From the IMG/VR virus record IMGVR_UViG_3300044712_002068, positions 6,816 through 70,815 of that record: a stretch of 64,000 nt of DNA. The stretch is one strand, 5' to 3'. Position numbers and translations under genes: made by a program. Source of the stretch: a virus. Under the pieces are notes generated by a model. It did not search any database. It saw only the letters and a program-made list of their open reading frames with translations, and was not told the origin of the DNA. Position 1 is the stretch's first letter. Each line of letters opens with the position of its first letter. Positions 58,022 to 64,000 of the stretch are shown one piece after another.

Positions 58022-58168
58022 TCAGTTGATGGGGTTCAATACCCCAGAGATTGACAATTTTCTCAGCAACTCACGAATAACATCGGACTGCGTTCTGTCT
58101 GTCAGCTTGCAGTACTTTTGCAAATGCTCAATCTCACGATCTGGCAATCTAATACTAATCTGTGGCAT
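58022..58168 (-). CDS. CopG/RHH regulator of the IS
   Basis: MPQISIRLPDREIEHL..YC....RTQSDVIRELLR. Confidence 0.8.
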   Translation of the reverse strand: MPQISIRLPDREIEHLQKYCKLTDRTQSDVIRELLRKLSISGVLNPIN

Positions 58169-58204
58169 GGTAGCAAATTTATAGTGATATGCTACAATAG
58201 TATC

Positions 58205-59434
58205 ATGCAAACCGCCTACCAGTACCGATTAAGATTGACTCGACAACAGCAAGCCACAATTGATAGCTGGCTTGAACTTTGCCGTAGGCAGTACAACTAT
58301 CGGATGGCAGAGAGGTTTAACTGGTGGGAGCAAAACCGCTGTGATATAAACGCTTGTCCACTTGTTTGCTATCTGCCAGAACTTAAAGACCGTCCTGACT
58401 TCTATTCGCAAAAAAGAGATCTAGTCAACTCCAAAAAGCTGTTTCCAAGGTATGCAGAGATTCCTTCTCATACCTTGCAAGATGTAGTAAAGCGCGTAGA
58501 AAAGACGTTTGACCGATGGCTAAAAGGGGATTGCAATGGCAAGCGTAGCGGCAAGCCGCGATTTAAGGGTATAGGGCGCTATCGGTCACTAGGCTTTCCT
58601 GACCCAGTAAAAACTGAACATATTCAGGGCAAGTTTATTCAACTTCCCAAACTTGGCAAGTTAAAGCTGATTTTGCATCGCCCCATTCCTGACGGATTCT
58701 CTATCAAGACTGCTGTAATTACCAAAAAAGCAGATGGCTACTGCATCGCGCTGTCACTGAAAGATTCGTCTGTACCTGAACTTAGCCCTGATCTGCCAAC
58801 TGTAGATAACACTATCGGGATTGATATGGGGCTGAAATCCTTTTTGATTGACAGCGACGGAAAAGACGAGCCGATCCCCCAGCACTACCGCAAAGCCGAA
58901 AAGCAATTGCGACGAATACAGCGCTCTCTATCTCGCAAGAAAAAAGGGTCAAACAACAGACGCAAAGCAGTCAAGCGAGTTGCTCGTCAGCATCTTAGGG
59001 TTGCTAATCAGCGCAAAGACTTTCACTACAAAACAGCTAAAAAACTGTTATCCAAAGGGAAAAACATCGGGCATGAAAGCCTGAACATTAAGGGTTTGGC
59101 AAAGTCTCGGCTAGCCAAATCGGTTAACGATGCTGGATGGGGGCAATTCCTGCAAATCCTTTCAATTAAAGCTGCAAATGCTGGGTTGATGACGATTGCG
59201 GTAAATCCAAACGGCACAAGCCAGGATTGTTCAGGTTGCGGCACAAAAGTTCCAAAGACGCTTGCTGTCAGGTGGCATAGCTGCCCTGAATGCAAATGTG
59301 AACTCGACCGTGACCACAATGCAGCTATTAATATCAGGAATAGGGCGGTAGGGCATTCCGTTCTTAAAGCTTCTGGAGTCCTAAGCAATAGCCGGACTGC
59401 GAAGGAAGAAGCCCGCGCTCTATGCGAAGCATGA
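58205..59434 (+). CDS. tnpB: RNA-guided endonuclease TnpB
   Basis: AYQYRL, GIDMGL, HESL, CSGCG/CPEC, DRDHNAA. Confidence 0.95.
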   Translation: MQTAYQYRLRLTRQQQATIDSWLELCRRQYNYRMAERFNWWEQNRCDINACPLVCYLPELKDRPDFYSQKRDLVNSKKLFPRYAEIPSHTLQDVVKRVEKTFDRWLKGDCNGKRSGKPRFKGIGRYRSLGFPDPVKTEHIQGKFIQLPKLGKLKLILHRPIPDGFSIKTAVITKKADGYCIALSLKDSSVPELSPDLPTVDNTIGIDMGLKSFLIDSDGKDEPIPQHYRKAEKQLRRIQRSLSRKKKGSNNRRKAVKRVARQHLRVANQRKDFHYKTAKKLLSKGKNIGHESLNIKGLAKSRLAKSVNDAGWGQFLQILSIKAANAGLMTIAVNPNGTSQDCSGCGTKVPKTLAVRWHSCPECKCELDRDHNAAINIRNRAVGHSVLKASGVLSNSRTAKEEARALCEA

Positions 59435-59972: not shown

Positions 59973-62900
59973 GTGGCCACAGCTTACGAACGGCTCAAGT
60001 TTGACGAGGCGATCGCCTACTTTAAGCAGAAAATACCGCTGCCTACCGAAACTTGGCAGCAAATTATCAACGACGCTCAAGACTGGGCCTTTACACTTTC
60101 AGGGGTCGAGAGTGCCCTAGTTTTGCAGACGGTTTACGATAAACTGCTGCAAATCTTGGAGGCTGAAAGCGAAACAGTAGACACGTTTCAGGAGTTTGCC
60201 GATACCTTTCAGCAGACCATGCAGGCCGCTGGCTATGGGCAGCAGTCGCCTTGGCGAGTGGCGCTGGTCTATGGGCAGAATATTCGCACGGCTTACAATG
60301 CAGGGCGATATCGGCAGCAGACTGACCCTGAGTTGATGGCTGCTAACCCCTACCTGCAATGGGTGCACGACCACCCGTTGGAGCCTCGACCCCACCATAA
60401 GGCGCTACACCTAAAGGTTTTTAGGGCTGATCATCCCATCTGGAAAACCATCTATCCTGCATCGGGGTTTGGTTGTTTCGCCAAAGGAACATTAGTCGCA
60501 ACCGAAAGCGGCTGGAAACCCATTGAATCAATTGCTGTGGGCGATCGCGTCATTGGGGGCAGCGGTGACATCAAGCCTGTAAACGCCGTTCACTCGATAC
60601 CCTACAGCGGAGAGATGATAAGGGTTTCCTGTAAAGGTGTTGACGATACTCTTGCGACCCCAAACCACCGTTTTTTGACTGCCAGGGGTTGGATCAGAGC
60701 TGATTCTCTGCTTGAGAGCGATGTACTCATCCAGGTCGGCCAACTTCCCAGCATTGACATATCGGTTGGCAAGGTAAACAAGATCGATTCCGCTGCTGAC
60801 AATGCTTGCGTGACGCTCCCAAGAGAGAGGCAGTCGAGCAAGGCCAAAACATTCAATCCCCAAACTCAATGCAGGGATAAACACGTCAATCCAATAGGGG
60901 TAGACGTGATGATTATGAATAACCTCAAAACCCATCGCCCTGATGTGGTTGATAACCGCAGCCTCAATCTTCGTAGGCTTGGCGATTGCACAGGGGTGGC
61001 TCAATGGGTTGAGCTTGTGTGTGCGTTTAAGGCTGGCGACGATTTTTGCCCTAACGTCAGGTCTTCTAGCAGATGTAGTGATCCTGAGTTTTTCAGCAGC
61101 AGTTCTCCGGCCAGGGCAGTTCTCTTTGGTCTTGCCAGTATTTGGAGCCCGACCCTCGGCGGACATCCTCCTCATAACCTCTTTGCCGACCTGCCGGGTC
61201 TTCTCTCTCCGCTCATCATTACCAGCCCATTGAAGGGCGACGGCTTCACTGCCTCTTCTAACGGGTACGTTAAGCTGCTCGAAAAGCTTCATGATGCTGT
61301 GATTTCCAGCACTCCAGCGATCGCACAACTGCCTGATCGTCATCTTGTCCACAACGTAGAGCCTGTGCAAAACGTCTCCGATCTCGCCAGCCTGACAGCC
61401 CTCAATAGCTGCAATTTTGCTCAGCAATTGAACACTGATCTCACCCTTGGCCAGACGCCTGCGGGGAATGCCAAAGTAGCTCATTATGCCGAAAACAGCG
61501 GACACGGAGCACTGGAATCTATCAGCGATCGCCTGCAACGTCATTTCCTGCTCAATGTAGAGGAGCCGCAAGGCTTCGTTAGCGGGGCACCCCTCGATCG
61601 ATTCGATTCGTTGAATGAGTTTCTGAGATGGTGCGCTACCCATGCGACTCTTACCCCAATAAACAGGCTAGAAAAAACGCTCTACACTGGCACCGTGCAT
61701 GATTTAAGTATATCCCAAGATGAAAGCTATGTAATCGTTTCAGGGATTGTGCATAATTGCCGTTGTCGGGTTTTTGGTTTGAGCGATCGCGACCTGGCAC
61801 GAGAGGGGCTCGCAGTTGAGGAGCCACCGAGCCAGACGGTTACAATCCGCGATCGCATCACGGGCAAAACACAGCGAGTGCCAGCGATCGAGGTTGATGG
61901 GGTACTGTATCCCATTGCAGAGCCAGGTTTTACCACGGCACCGGGGGCGTCACCCCTAGAACAGCGGCAACAAATTTTAGAGGGTGCGCTCAATCGCATG
62001 AGCCCACGACTGCGAGAGTTGGCAGCGCAGCAGATTGACTTTACCGAAACCCTCGACTTTGCACAGCTCAAAAACGCAGGCAACACCAAACAGACCAAAA
62101 ACTGTGTTAAAGGGTGGCCTTGTGGGTTCACCTGCCTCAGCAGGGCCAAGAAGAACTGTAAACGCAAGCTAGAGGGGCAATCGGTCAGTCTTCAGGAGTG
62201 GCTCAAGCTAAATCAGGCTATAGGCTCAAATGAGTTTGCCGAGCGCTACGCCGCATCGTGGAGCAATGCCCCAGATGATCTCAAGTCGGTTATTGGTGCA
62301 CAACCCAAGCCCAAAGAGCTATCTGGAACCGTAGAGAGAGTAGCCTACTTTCAGTCTTCAATGGGCGGCATTTATATGAATGGCTACACGCCAGACCACC
62401 CACAGGGCGAGGGGGTTTGGCGGCATGAGTATGGCCATCATCTTGACCATGAATTGGTGGCCAGCGCGATCGCCCTGGCTGATAAACAGATTGCTGCAAA
62501 GCGCTCTGAGATGGGCAAAGGTACCCGCAGCATTCAAGAGGCAAGCAAGCTGAGTACAGAGTTTTTGAGGCTGCAAAACGATCGAGCCAGTCTAGACAAG
62601 GTGCGCTACACCTCAAGCGCTAGCGGCTATACCAGGAAGGTGCACAACGATAGCGATCGCTTGGTCAAGGGCCGAGCGCAAACGTTAGAGCTGATGAGTA
62701 CTGGGTATGACAAGCTCAGCGCCTATGCCGAATCAATCAGGCGCGACCCAAAACAGCGAAGCGAGTTTACCGTAATTGACAAAGCAAGAATCGGCGGTAT
62801 CCCAATCAATGTGAGGAACGGCGCTCGATCCCTTGCAGACTACCCAGATGATGACAGGCTCTACTATCTGCGCGGGTTTTACAAAGACTACGAGCGAGGG

Positions 62901-63371
62901 CAGATAGAGCGCGATCGCCATTCTGATGCTGATGAAAACGCCCATGCTGCGCAGTGGGGCGATCGCCACTTTGAGGGGAGAGACGATATTTATGCCCAAA
63001 CGTGGCAAGAGGCGCGGCGGATGGGCGTTGAGCTAACCCCAGGCAACACGGCGAGCCTGATCACCGCAGACCGTTTTAACGACCGAGAGCTATTGGTCGC
63101 ATTTGTTGACGGGAAGATCGCTAGTGAAGACAAAATGAGCGGAGTAACGCCTGATTTTATTGGCTCAATCACCCTGAACAAAGTAGGGCGGGGGCATAGT
63201 GACGACTACTATGCCAGCTCTCCAGACAACCGCTACACCGAAACGTTTGCCAATTTTGTCGCGATGTACGGCTCAGGAAAGCCATACTATAACAATCTGA
63301 TGAATGACCTTGCCCCAGAGACTTACGCTGCCTACCGAGAGCTGATCGACGATGCTGCAAGACAAACTTGA
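59973..63371 (+). CDS. MuF (gp30-like) head morphogenesis protein with intein, Cys4 tag and C-terminal zincin-like domain
   Basis: F.EAI.YF..K, AFT.SG, N..TAY.AGRY, PRPHH..LH..VF..DHP.W..IYP..GFG/CRC; RHEYGHHLD and ETFAN. Confidence 0.88.
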   Translation: MATAYERLKFDEAIAYFKQKIPLPTETWQQIINDAQDWAFTLSGVESALVLQTVYDKLLQILEAESETVDTFQEFADTFQQTMQAAGYGQQSPWRVALVYGQNIRTAYNAGRYRQQTDPELMAANPYLQWVHDHPLEPRPHHKALHLKVFRADHPIWKTIYPASGFGCFAKGTLVATESGWKPIESIAVGDRVIGGSGDIKPVNAVHSIPYSGEMIRVSCKGVDDTLATPNHRFLTARGWIRADSLLESDVLIQVGQLPSIDISVGKVNKIDSAADNACVTLPRERQSSKAKTFNPQTQCRDKHVNPIGVDVMIMNNLKTHRPDVVDNRSLNLRRLGDCTGVAQWVELVCAFKAGDDFCPNVRSSSRCSDPEFFSSSSPARAVLFGLASIWSPTLGGHPPHNLFADLPGLLSPLIITSPLKGDGFTASSNGYVKLLEKLHDAVISSTPAIAQLPDRHLVHNVEPVQNVSDLASLTALNSCNFAQQLNTDLTLGQTPAGNAKVAHYAENSGHGALESISDRLQRHFLLNVEEPQGFVSGAPLDRFDSLNEFLRWCATHATLTPINRLEKTLYTGTVHDLSISQDESYVIVSGIVHNCRCRVFGLSDRDLAREGLAVEEPPSQTVTIRDRITGKTQRVPAIEVDGVLYPIAEPGFTTAPGASPLEQRQQILEGALNRMSPRLRELAAQQIDFTETLDFAQLKNAGNTKQTKNCVKGWPCGFTCLSRAKKNCKRKLEGQSVSLQEWLKLNQAIGSNEFAERYAASWSNAPDDLKSVIGAQPKPKELSGTVERVAYFQSSMGGIYMNGYTPDHPQGEGVWRHEYGHHLDHELVASAIALADKQIAAKRSEMGKGTRSIQEASKLSTEFLRLQNDRASLDKVRYTSSASGYTRKVHNDSDRLVKGRAQTLELMSTGYDKLSAYAESIRRDPKQRSEFTVIDKARIGGIPINVRNGARSLADYPDDDRLYYLRGFYKDYERGQIERDRHSDADENAHAAQWGDRHFEGRDDIYAQTWQEARRMGVELTPGNTASLITADRFNDRELLVAFVDGKIASEDKMSGVTPDFIGSITLNKVGRGHSDDYYASSPDNRYTETFANFVAMYGSGKPYYNNLMNDLAPETYAAYRELIDDAARQT
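60474..61757 (+). mobile_element. Intein (428 aa) in MuF
   Basis: Block A CFAKGTLV, block B ATPNHRFLT, block F VHDLSI, block G IVHN followed by +1 Cys; splicing restores GFG-CRCRV. Confidence 0.92.
60528..61643 (-). CDS. Antisense-encoded HTH + DUF559/Vsr-like endonuclease nested inside the intein
   Basis: Two LY....MT...IA/LC HTH repeats ending IPRR/VPVR, NUMOD-like basic linker, PTKIE...YWIDVFIP...IECFG nuclease motif. Confidence 0.78.
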   Translation of the reverse strand: MGSAPSQKLIQRIESIEGCPANEALRLLYIEQEMTLQAIADRFQCSVSAVFGIMSYFGIPRRRLAKGEISVQLLSKIAAIEGCQAGEIGDVLHRLYVVDKMTIRQLCDRWSAGNHSIMKLFEQLNVPVRRGSEAVALQWAGNDERREKTRQVGKEVMRRMSAEGRAPNTGKTKENCPGRRTAAEKLRITTSARRPDVRAKIVASLKRTHKLNPLSHPCAIAKPTKIEAAVINHIRAMGFEVIHNHHVYPYWIDVFIPALSLGIECFGLARLPLSWERHASIVSSGIDLVYLANRYVNAGKLADLDEYIALKQRISSDPTPGSQKTVVWGRKSIVNTFTGNPYHLSAVGYRVNGVYRLDVTAAPNDAIAHSN

Positions 63372-63564: not shown

Positions 63565-64000
63565 GTGGCAAAAATCCGAATCACTACACGCGACCTACAG
63601 CCACTCCGCCTATCGCTTGAGCAGTATGAGGCATTTATCAGACGGCCTACTGTAGCGCTCAAACGCATCGGAGCCTATCAAGAGCGGCGATATCAAAAGG
63701 CATTCGACGCTAACCGCACGCCCGAGGGGGCAGCATGGCCTAAGCTGGCACCCTCAACCATTGCCAGTAAACGCAACCCCAAAATGCTGGTTGAGACGGT
63801 TGGGCGCATCCCTGCGTCACTGTTCCATGAAGTGGTGAACGGGGTGATCACGGTGGGGTACGGCGACCCATTGGCCCAGATCCACCACGACGGAGCCAAG
63901 ATCAGACCCCATAAAATCATCCCAAAAAACAAGAAAGCGCTCTACTGGAAAGGGGCGTCTCACCCCGTGCGCTCGGTCAATCACCCAGGCTCGACCCTGC
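63565..64000 (+). CDS. Phage virion morphogenesis protein (Mu gpG-like), runs off window end
   Basis: Hand translation: F....TPEG.AW..LAPST...K...L.ET.G, IHHDG, IIPKNKKALYWKG..HPV.SVNHPG. Confidence 0.82.
   Translation, partial: MAKIRITTRDLQPLRLSLEQYEAFIRRPTVALKRIGAYQERRYQKAFDANRTPEGAAWPKLAPSTIASKRNPKMLVETVGRIPASLFHEVVNGVITVGYGDPLAQIHHDGAKIRPHKIIPKNKKALYWKGASHPVRSVNHPGSTL

Follow-up and report, generated by a model that had tools for sequence, protein, structure and literature searches.

An intein that interrupts a phage head gene raises the question of where its homing endonuclease is encoded. The intein lies in a 64,000-nucleotide (nt) stretch of DNA from an uncultured phage (the window), corresponding to bases 6816–70815 of the 70,815-bp virus record IMGVR_UViG_3300044712_002068, which has direct terminal repeats; in this window the gene for a MuF-type minor head protein (59973..63371, plus strand, 1132 amino acids, aa) is a single open reading frame (ORF) that runs straight through the intein. 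The initial annotation placed the endonuclease on the opposite strand, in a 371-aa ORF lying antisense to the intein. This core reading, with an endonuclease encoded on the opposite strand and a sense frame kept open by avoidance of three codons, is supported, because the constraint switches strand within the intein, the three codons are missing from the minus-strand gene, only the minus-strand product is predicted to fold across the insert, and the predicted fold is of Vsr/DUF559 type. We consider it highly probable that the element is a mobile class-1 intein at a conserved site in MuF and that a gene of its own, 371 aa long and codon-aligned on the opposite strand, encodes its homing endonuclease.

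The MuF ORF matches the profile phrog_220 ('minor head protein and DNA pilot', E = 8.5e-45). Its N-extein (59973..60473, plus strand, 167 aa) contains the Pfam domain Phage_Mu_F (aa 79–168, E = 5.5e-9), and its C-extein (61758..63371, plus strand) begins with the residues CRC; the phrog_220 match stops at profile position 1057 in the former and picks up at position 1058 in the latter, so that removal of the intein restores a seamless MuF protein. The intein itself has 428 codons (60474..61757, plus strand; MuF aa 168–595), with boundaries set by an alignment of 12 host frames, and its position agrees exactly with that originally proposed. Its splicing blocks are in place, with Cys1 (C168 in MuF numbering), TPNH in block B, VHN in block G and a +1 Cys (C596), and the splice junctions read GFG/CFAKG... 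and ...IVHN/CRC. Pfam searches of the MuF ORF return Hint_2 (31.3 bits against a cut-off of 28.4), Intein_splicing and Hom_end_hint. There are no stops within the intein in the host (plus) frame and 25 and 33 in the other two plus frames. Three segments can be distinguished: a Hint-N splicing module with blocks A and B (60474..60749, plus strand), conserved in the host frame and matched by Foldseek to mini-inteins; a Hint-C splicing module of about 36 codons with blocks F and G (61650..61757, plus strand), recognized by host-frame conservation and in the AlphaFold2 model; and between them a passenger linker of about 300 codons (60750..61649, plus strand), which is open but neither conserved nor predicted to fold in the sense direction. 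As the initial annotation had noted, the insert carries no recognizable LAGLIDADG or HNH endonuclease; neither family is matched at E ≤ 1 by Pfam or NCBIfam models anywhere in the 1132-aa ORF, insert included.

The antisense gene (61643..60528, minus strand, 371 aa plus stop) is codon-aligned with the intein frame, positions 59973 and 61641 both being divisible by 3, which bears out the proposed register. It begins with two helix-turn-helix (HTH) modules. The first (aa 1–65; 61449..61643, minus strand) matches phrog_8446 and phrog_7545 ('HNH endonuclease') over aa 15–66 with E-values of 2e-11 and 8e-10, and structure comparison relates it to HTH regulators (Z about 5). The second (aa 66–130; 61254..61448, minus strand) is a duplicate of the first (31% identity between aa 1–65 and 66–130, BLASTP E = 2e-11), just as the initial annotation had described, and is the module common to the whole family. 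The extra module is found only in the window and in the database homologue P0001 among the 19 sequences of alignment A2, and is probably also present in L026 (360 aa). A helical linker follows (aa 131–221; 60981..61253, minus strand), in which the motifs SEAVKTQW, LGKTKE, AEKLK and SSARRPEVR are kept throughout A2 and the predicted helices score 72–91 in pLDDT (predicted local distance difference test); by eye, and without a database match, we describe its repeats as NUMOD-like. The Vsr/DUF559-type (PD-(D/E)xK-like) nuclease domain (aa 222–317; 60693..60980, minus strand) is identified by its fold and by the motifs WID, IEC and ERH, and the gene ends with a C-terminal tail (aa 318–371; 60531..60692, minus strand) that is antisense to Hint-N and modeled with beta strands at aa 325–361.

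The start of the gene is fixed relative to the intein: in all 12 loci compared either 114 or 117 nt separate the nuclease ATG from the C-terminal edge of the intein, and this ATG reads as an invariant His in the host frame. Just upstream is the sequence GGTAAGAGT (61647..61655, minus strand), which the initial annotation took for a promoter. That assignment does not hold up, in that the motif ends 3 nt before the ATG, with its core AAGAG 4 nt before it, which is the position of a ribosome-binding site, and we describe it as a Shine-Dalgarno (SD)-like motif. GGAGG- or GAGG-type motifs are present 5–9 nt upstream of the nuclease ATG in L002, L004, L005 and L009, and no SD-type motif is evident there in L003, L006, L007, L010 and L012, several of which are AT-rich.

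Relatives of the minus-strand ORF were found both as proteins and as loci. There are six database homologues (P0001–P0006, 37–51% identity), and a family profile search recovers 1596 proteins with a cut-off of E ≤ 1e-3, of which 36 reach E ≤ 1e-30. Viral contigs yielded 13 near-full-length relatives (L002–L014, 29–41% identity), with L015–L025 left out as partial matches to the DNA-binding region only; a search of the same kind of contigs with the distant relative P0033 as query gave no related loci. The host strand is open across the nuclease ORF, in the same register, in 11 of the 13 viral-contig loci and broken in two, L010 and L013, whose stops kept them out of alignment A3. L008 has the same layout as L007 and was dropped from later counts, and L009, whose contig ends within the intein, was left out of the host-frame alignment and of the Hint-N overlap comparison. 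A scan of metagenome contigs gave 10 further loci, all with an open host frame (eight complete and two ended by the contig), some of which are repeats: L032 of L007/L008, L033 and L034 of L006, and L029 of L030. Two of the related proteins, P0009 (599 aa) and P0010 (525 aa), have the nuclease family region at the C-terminus after 210–285 extra N-terminal residues; these may be gene calls running through the antisense of a C-extein, or real fusions.

The insertion point is shared across these loci. Phage_Mu_F is present in nine of the 10 host ORFs scanned, the tenth (L009) being truncated by the contig end, and a Hint or intein domain is found in all 10 with Pfam. The MuF match ends at profile position 107 of 112 in all nine ORFs that have it, and in eight of these nine a Hint-type domain starts where the MuF match ends or no more than 7 residues away, L007 having an Intein_splicing match alone. 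The loci therefore represent one intein allele family, and Cys1, TxNH, HN and the +1 Cys are kept in the window and in all 11 loci of the host-frame alignment.

Since the two frames are codon-aligned in antisense, only the codons TTA, CTA and TCA in the minus-strand gene can create a stop in MuF. None of the three occurs in the 371 codons of the minus ORF, where 11.3 are expected (P about 3e-6), as judged from the 49 other long ORFs of the window, in which they make up 3.3% of 14,958 codons. CTA alone occurs 15.6 times per 1000 codons in those 49 ORFs and is the second commonest Leu codon, and the avoidance that the initial annotation had remarked upon is real; the MuF exteins contain 20 of the three codons in 704. 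Across the window and 12 loci, 11 of the 13 nuclease ORFs lack all three codons against expectations of 2.7–17.7, with the probability of finding none ranging from 0.06 (L014) to about 1e-11. The lowest values come from L006 and L007, where TTA and CTA constitute 62–65% of Leu codons elsewhere and are absent from the nuclease gene (P about 1e-11), and all 10 metagenome loci likewise have no forbidden codons. The two remaining ORFs are those opposite broken host frames: L010 has two forbidden codons, and L013 has seven against 6.6 expected, with its host frame broken and its nuclease ORF intact. L013 thus serves as a natural control: what is kept up there is the minus-strand gene, for the sake of the protein that it encodes. 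Selection keeps the sense frame open.

With codons in register on the two strands, a single codon alignment can be read in either frame, and the strand that codes can be asked for directly. With 13 sequences (the window and 12 loci) and an alignment built from the nuclease proteins, the nuclease frame has a mean amino acid identity of 0.34 against 0.26 for the host frame, and a BLOSUM62 score per column of 1.57 against 0.76; building the alignment from the host proteins gives the same picture (identity 0.345 for the nuclease and 0.265 for the host; BLOSUM62 1.59 and 0.82). The comparison was also made region by region on the host-built alignment of 12 sequences (the window and 11 loci). From 60450 to 60749, covering the end of the extein and Hint-N, BLOSUM62 scores per column are 1.5–2.9 in the host frame versus 0.4–1.6 in the other, with the third host codon position varying most. 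Between 60750 and 61649 the opposite (nuclease) frame scores 0.8–2.2, the host frame scores –0.6 to 0.7 as far as nt 61589, and the most variable position is host position 1, which is position 3 of the nuclease codons; in the last block of the insert (61590–61649) the scores are 1.93 for the nuclease and 1.47 for the host. Block 61350–61409, which was left aside, has only two data columns and 61410–61529 has none, since the extra HTH module of the window falls in this stretch and is absent from the other 11 sequences. From 61650 onwards, in Hint-C, the host frame again scores higher (1.4–3.4 versus 0.0–1.0). The host frame is thus the better conserved in the exteins, Hint-N and Hint-C, and the nuclease frame in nearly all of 60750–61649. 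Per-position differences and BLOSUM scores were used in place of a formal ratio of nonsynonymous to synonymous substitution rates (dN/dS), since synonymous sites are saturated at 28–43% identity. The constraint switches strand within the intein, and conservation of the insert tracks the minus frame and not the sense frame, in agreement with the initial annotation.

Structure prediction separates the two strands in the same way. The AlphaFold2 model of the minus-strand protein (19 input sequences) has a mean pLDDT of 84.1 and consists of two four-helix HTH modules (aa 7–57 and 71–123), the helical linker, and an alpha/beta domain at aa 222–317; means over 10-residue blocks are 88–97 in the nuclease core (aa 211–310) and 62–84 in the tail (aa 311–360). 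With VIA-align the nuclease domain aligns with the DUF559-like structure 3hrl at Z = 10.1 (root-mean-square deviation, rmsd, 2.1; 91 of 94 residues) and, at Z = 8.4, with 3r3p_A, which is the catalytic domain of the homing endonuclease I-Bth0305I (rmsd 2.6; 91 of 97 residues), and Holliday-junction resolvases come next (Z 5–7). Foldseek gives a probability of 1.00 for both 3hrl and 3r3p; when the whole 371-residue model is compared with the Protein Data Bank (PDB) nothing is matched at E ≤ 0.001, the best being 3hrl at 3.3e-3 and 3r3p at 9.2e-3. The model of the sense intein (10 input sequences) has a mean pLDDT of 49.6, with residues 90–380 all below 50 and 10-residue block means of 69–94 for residues 1–90 (Hint-N) and 78–94 for residues 391–428 (Hint-C), and it matches only Hint/mini-intein folds (Foldseek E = 3e-5, probability 1.00). 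Taken with the alignments, the models show Hint-N (about 90 codons) and Hint-C (about 36) as the only parts conserved and predicted to fold in the MuF frame, and, for the roughly 300 codons between them, assign both conservation and predicted folding to the minus-strand reading alone.

Several points weigh against this identification of the endonuclease. Neither NCBIfam (no families) nor Pfam assigns the window protein to a nuclease family, the best Pfam nuclease model being REase_MTES_1575 at E = 0.074, accompanied by weak HTH matches, and the family profile finds no chain among PDB sequences at E ≤ 1; the Vsr/DUF559-like character originally proposed is thus upheld by fold and not by Pfam. 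The core motifs WID, IEC and ERH, which were assigned by eye, differ from the EDxHD named for I-Bth0305I. In L004, L005 and P0005 both acidic positions are occupied by N and by Q or Y (WIN with IQC or IYC) and the ORF is nevertheless retained, so that nuclease activity is not universal in the family, and to judge from these substitutions some copies may be inactive. The initial annotation had further supposed that the gene can be expressed early, independently of the late MuF gene, from a promoter of its own. Neither the early timing nor the promoter is supported; sigma-70-like sites in 60300–62100 number two against 1.5 +/- 1.1 in shuffled sequences, no excess; one lies on the minus strand (61735..61707, 64 nt upstream of the ATG), and is not counted as evidence because shuffles give as many. 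Both splicing through an unstructured insert of some 290 residues and cleavage of the intein-less allele are assumptions. With regard to Pfam, DUF559 (PF04480) is not matched by the window protein at E ≤ 1, and among 10 proteins scanned P0010 scores 20.6 bits, equal to the cut-off, P0009 20.2, and the distant P0059 59.7 (E = 2.9e-16); the minus-strand protein belongs to the DUF559 superfamily and not to the Pfam model itself.

The same observations could be read to mean that the minus-strand gene, though genuine and under selection, has ceased to act as a homing endonuclease or does not act solely as one, and encodes a DNA-binding regulator or a domesticated or nuclease-dead protein. L004, L005 and P0005 would fit this, as they lack both acidic residues and yet keep full-length ORFs with no forbidden codons, as would the loss of the ERH His from three of the 19 sequences in A2 and the conservation of the DNA-binding part (HTH and helical linker), which equals that of the nuclease core. 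We regard it as unlikely, given that the window copy retains WID, IEC and ERH, that the fold matches a characterized homing endonuclease, and that the element occupies a single exact site in a single host gene across phages of 32–65% GC, as homing predicts. A codon-aligned antisense frame is known to be stop-poor and is the one most often open by chance, and the sense frame is open in most loci; it might therefore be supposed that the sense insert is a real, novel intein domain and the minus ORF its shadow. This is very improbable and we reject it, as conservation, fold and L013 all contradict it: the minus frame is the better conserved even on the alignment built from the sense proteins, with sense position 1 showing the most substitutions, pLDDT stays below 50 for the sense insert against 84 for the minus-strand protein, which has recognizable HTH and nuclease folds, and in L013 the minus ORF is intact despite seven sense-frame stops. 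That a host frame can be broken, as in L010 and L013, also brings up a free-standing endonuclease gene that landed in a dead intein or MuF pseudogene, with a sense frame open by chance. The codon statistics contradict this and it too is rejected as extremely improbable, the chance of finding no forbidden codons running from 3e-6 in the window to about 1e-11 in the AT-rich loci, in 11 of 13 ORFs; the splicing residues are moreover conserved in the window and 11 loci, and the exteins match phrog_220 without a seam.

With a homing endonuclease encoded antisense to the intein as the preferred reading, the element would work as follows. The MuF precursor would be translated through the unstructured passenger, after which Hint-N would come together with Hint-C to cut out the complete intein and ligate GFG to CRC. 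The minus-strand protein, whose translation would begin at a start of its own with the SD-like motif, would cut intein-less MuF alleles in co-infecting phages, and repair of the break would copy the intein and the nuclease gene together. A mutation creating TTA, CTA or TCA in the nuclease gene would truncate an essential head protein and be purged.

The two genes also meet within Hint-N. In all 12 loci compared the nuclease ORF runs on for 68–86 codons through Hint-N and ends at intein codon 9–27; in the window it overlaps Hint-N by 76 codons and terminates at intein codon 19. Given the codon usage of each phage, the probability of so long a run is 0.059 in the window, 0.006 in L004, 0.002 in L006 and 0.0007 in L007, and the run length is not significant in the GC-richer loci. 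Both frames score well at 60630–60749 (BLOSUM62 2.2–2.65 and 1.5–1.6); nearer the end of the nuclease ORF the nuclease-frame score is about 0.6, which does not exceed the shadow that a conserved host frame would cast. Part of Hint-N may be truly dual-coding. In L013 (1476–3731) and L010 (5224–8025) MuF is divided into two ORFs, with an intact nuclease gene antisense between them: the first ORF comprises the MuF N-extein and Hint-N followed by about 45 further codons and a stop, the second starts with an ATG and runs through Hint-C and the C-extein, and both Hint halves are conserved. These two are candidate natural split inteins with the anatomy of 'fractured genes'. We suggest tentatively, as a joint proposal that is less likely than not, that the last 55–75 or so nuclease codons (about 200 nt) dual-code with Hint-N under reciprocal stop avoidance and that L013 and L010 are split inteins born from the antisense layout; if so, inteins with antisense endonucleases are an observed intermediate between contiguous inteins and fractured genes.

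The premise of the initial annotation that intein endonucleases are normally in-frame has published exceptions, and the antisense-endonuclease architecture is already known; the comparisons below draw on excerpts of the papers cited. Gosselin, Arsenault & Gogarten (bioRxiv 10.1101/2025.01.02.630785) describe anti-sense VSR-like endonucleases in full inteins of actinobacteriophages, including those of minor capsid proteins (IPR006528), and report AlphaFold models in which the sense insert is without structure and the anti-sense product has a VSR-like core. Those inteins and the one in the window are alike in being contiguous, in their VSR-like core (linked by the authors to 3R3P and the EDxHD family), in the unstructured sense insert and in the minor-capsid host. 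The window copy differs in belonging to an uncultured phage that abounds in the octamer GCGATCGC and is no actinophage. A tblastn comparison of its nuclease with 50,697 GenBank phage records, in which relatives in actinophages were looked for, gives no match at E ≤ 1e-5; the 17 weak matches that appear at E ≤ 1 come from Pseudomonas, Vibrio, Halovirus and Bacillus phages, with no actinophage among them, and are mostly annotated as homing or HNH endonucleases. As far as the excerpted main text of the preprint goes, the codon-avoidance statistics, the L013 control and the Hint-N overlap go beyond it. Anti-sense LAGLIDADG endonucleases are also on record, in the Synechocystis dnaX and Chloroflexus SpoVR-like inteins (Gorbalenya 1998; Gogarten et al. 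2002, as cited in bioRxiv 10.1101/2025.01.02.630785), whereas the window nuclease is of Vsr/DUF559 type and lies in another host gene.

In the fractured genes described by Dassa et al. (2009, PMC2677866), a free-standing endonuclease gene of Vsr-like or GIY-YIG type separates the two parts of a split intein. The window shares with them a Vsr-like endonuclease with separate DNA-binding modules (NUMOD-type in the fractured genes), its location in the endonuclease region of an intein, and phage-like DNA; however, a fractured host gene is in two ORFs, whereas MuF in the window is one contiguous ORF with the nuclease antisense. In the fractured genes the 3' end of the endonuclease gene overlaps the start of the downstream intein half by 6–69 bp, which implies that both are on the same strand. 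L013 and L010 resemble fractured genes but for their antisense nuclease. I-Bth0305I is the founding EDxHD/Vsr-like homing endonuclease (Taylor et al. 2011, PMC3239194; PDB 3r3p), and its catalytic domain is the one with which the window nuclease shares its fold. Unlike the window nuclease it is encoded in a group I intron, the two are 14% identical, and the family profile does not match it; compared by eye, the acidic-residue motif is IECFG in the window and EDxHD in I-Bth0305I, with no literal EDxHD in A2.

These loci extend the anti-sense VSR-like intein type, so far as the excerpts cited describe it, from actinobacteriophages to uncultured phages of 32–65% GC, including one rich in GCGATCGC. 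Two selfish functions share one stretch of DNA, and the need for an uninterrupted head protein polices the codon usage of the other strand. The locus is chiefly of value as a well-controlled example, with L013 as its natural control, and for the leads that it gives towards dual coding in Hint-N and derivatives with split inteins. The antisense nuclease gene escapes gene callers and annotators. Hint halves with a dispensable linker of about 290 residues, together with the possible split derivatives, are candidate inteins for protein engineering, and the minus-strand nuclease is a candidate new long-site DNA cutter.

The C-exteins of the MuF proteins vary. The 537-aa C-extein of the window matches phrog_220 alone, over its first 111 residues, and its relatives differ in their C-terminal module, which is PBECR2, a Barnase/EndoU/ColicinE5-D/RelE-like nuclease, in L005 (5194–7641, minus strand) and L009 (4406–6052, minus strand) and LPD3 in L014 (2435–4894, minus strand); the MuF proteins here seem to act as carriers of variable cargo domains. 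Downstream of MuF, an ORF that is open at the window end (63565–63999, plus strand) matches phrog_26 ('tail completion or Neck1 protein', E = 4.9e-18), consistent with MuF being part of a late block of head/neck genes. Immediately upstream of the head-gene block is a 438-aa transposase ORF (58118–59434, plus strand; phrog_506, E = 5.8e-99), a mobile element inside the phage genome, which by eye resembles a TnpB of IS200/IS605 type; its end overlaps the start of the following ORF (59422). Finally, GCGATCGC is present in 153 copies in the 64-kb window, where about one is expected by chance, and several copies lie inside the intein/nuclease region; we take this octamer to be the cyanobacterial HIP1 repeat, which would suggest a cyanobacterial host.

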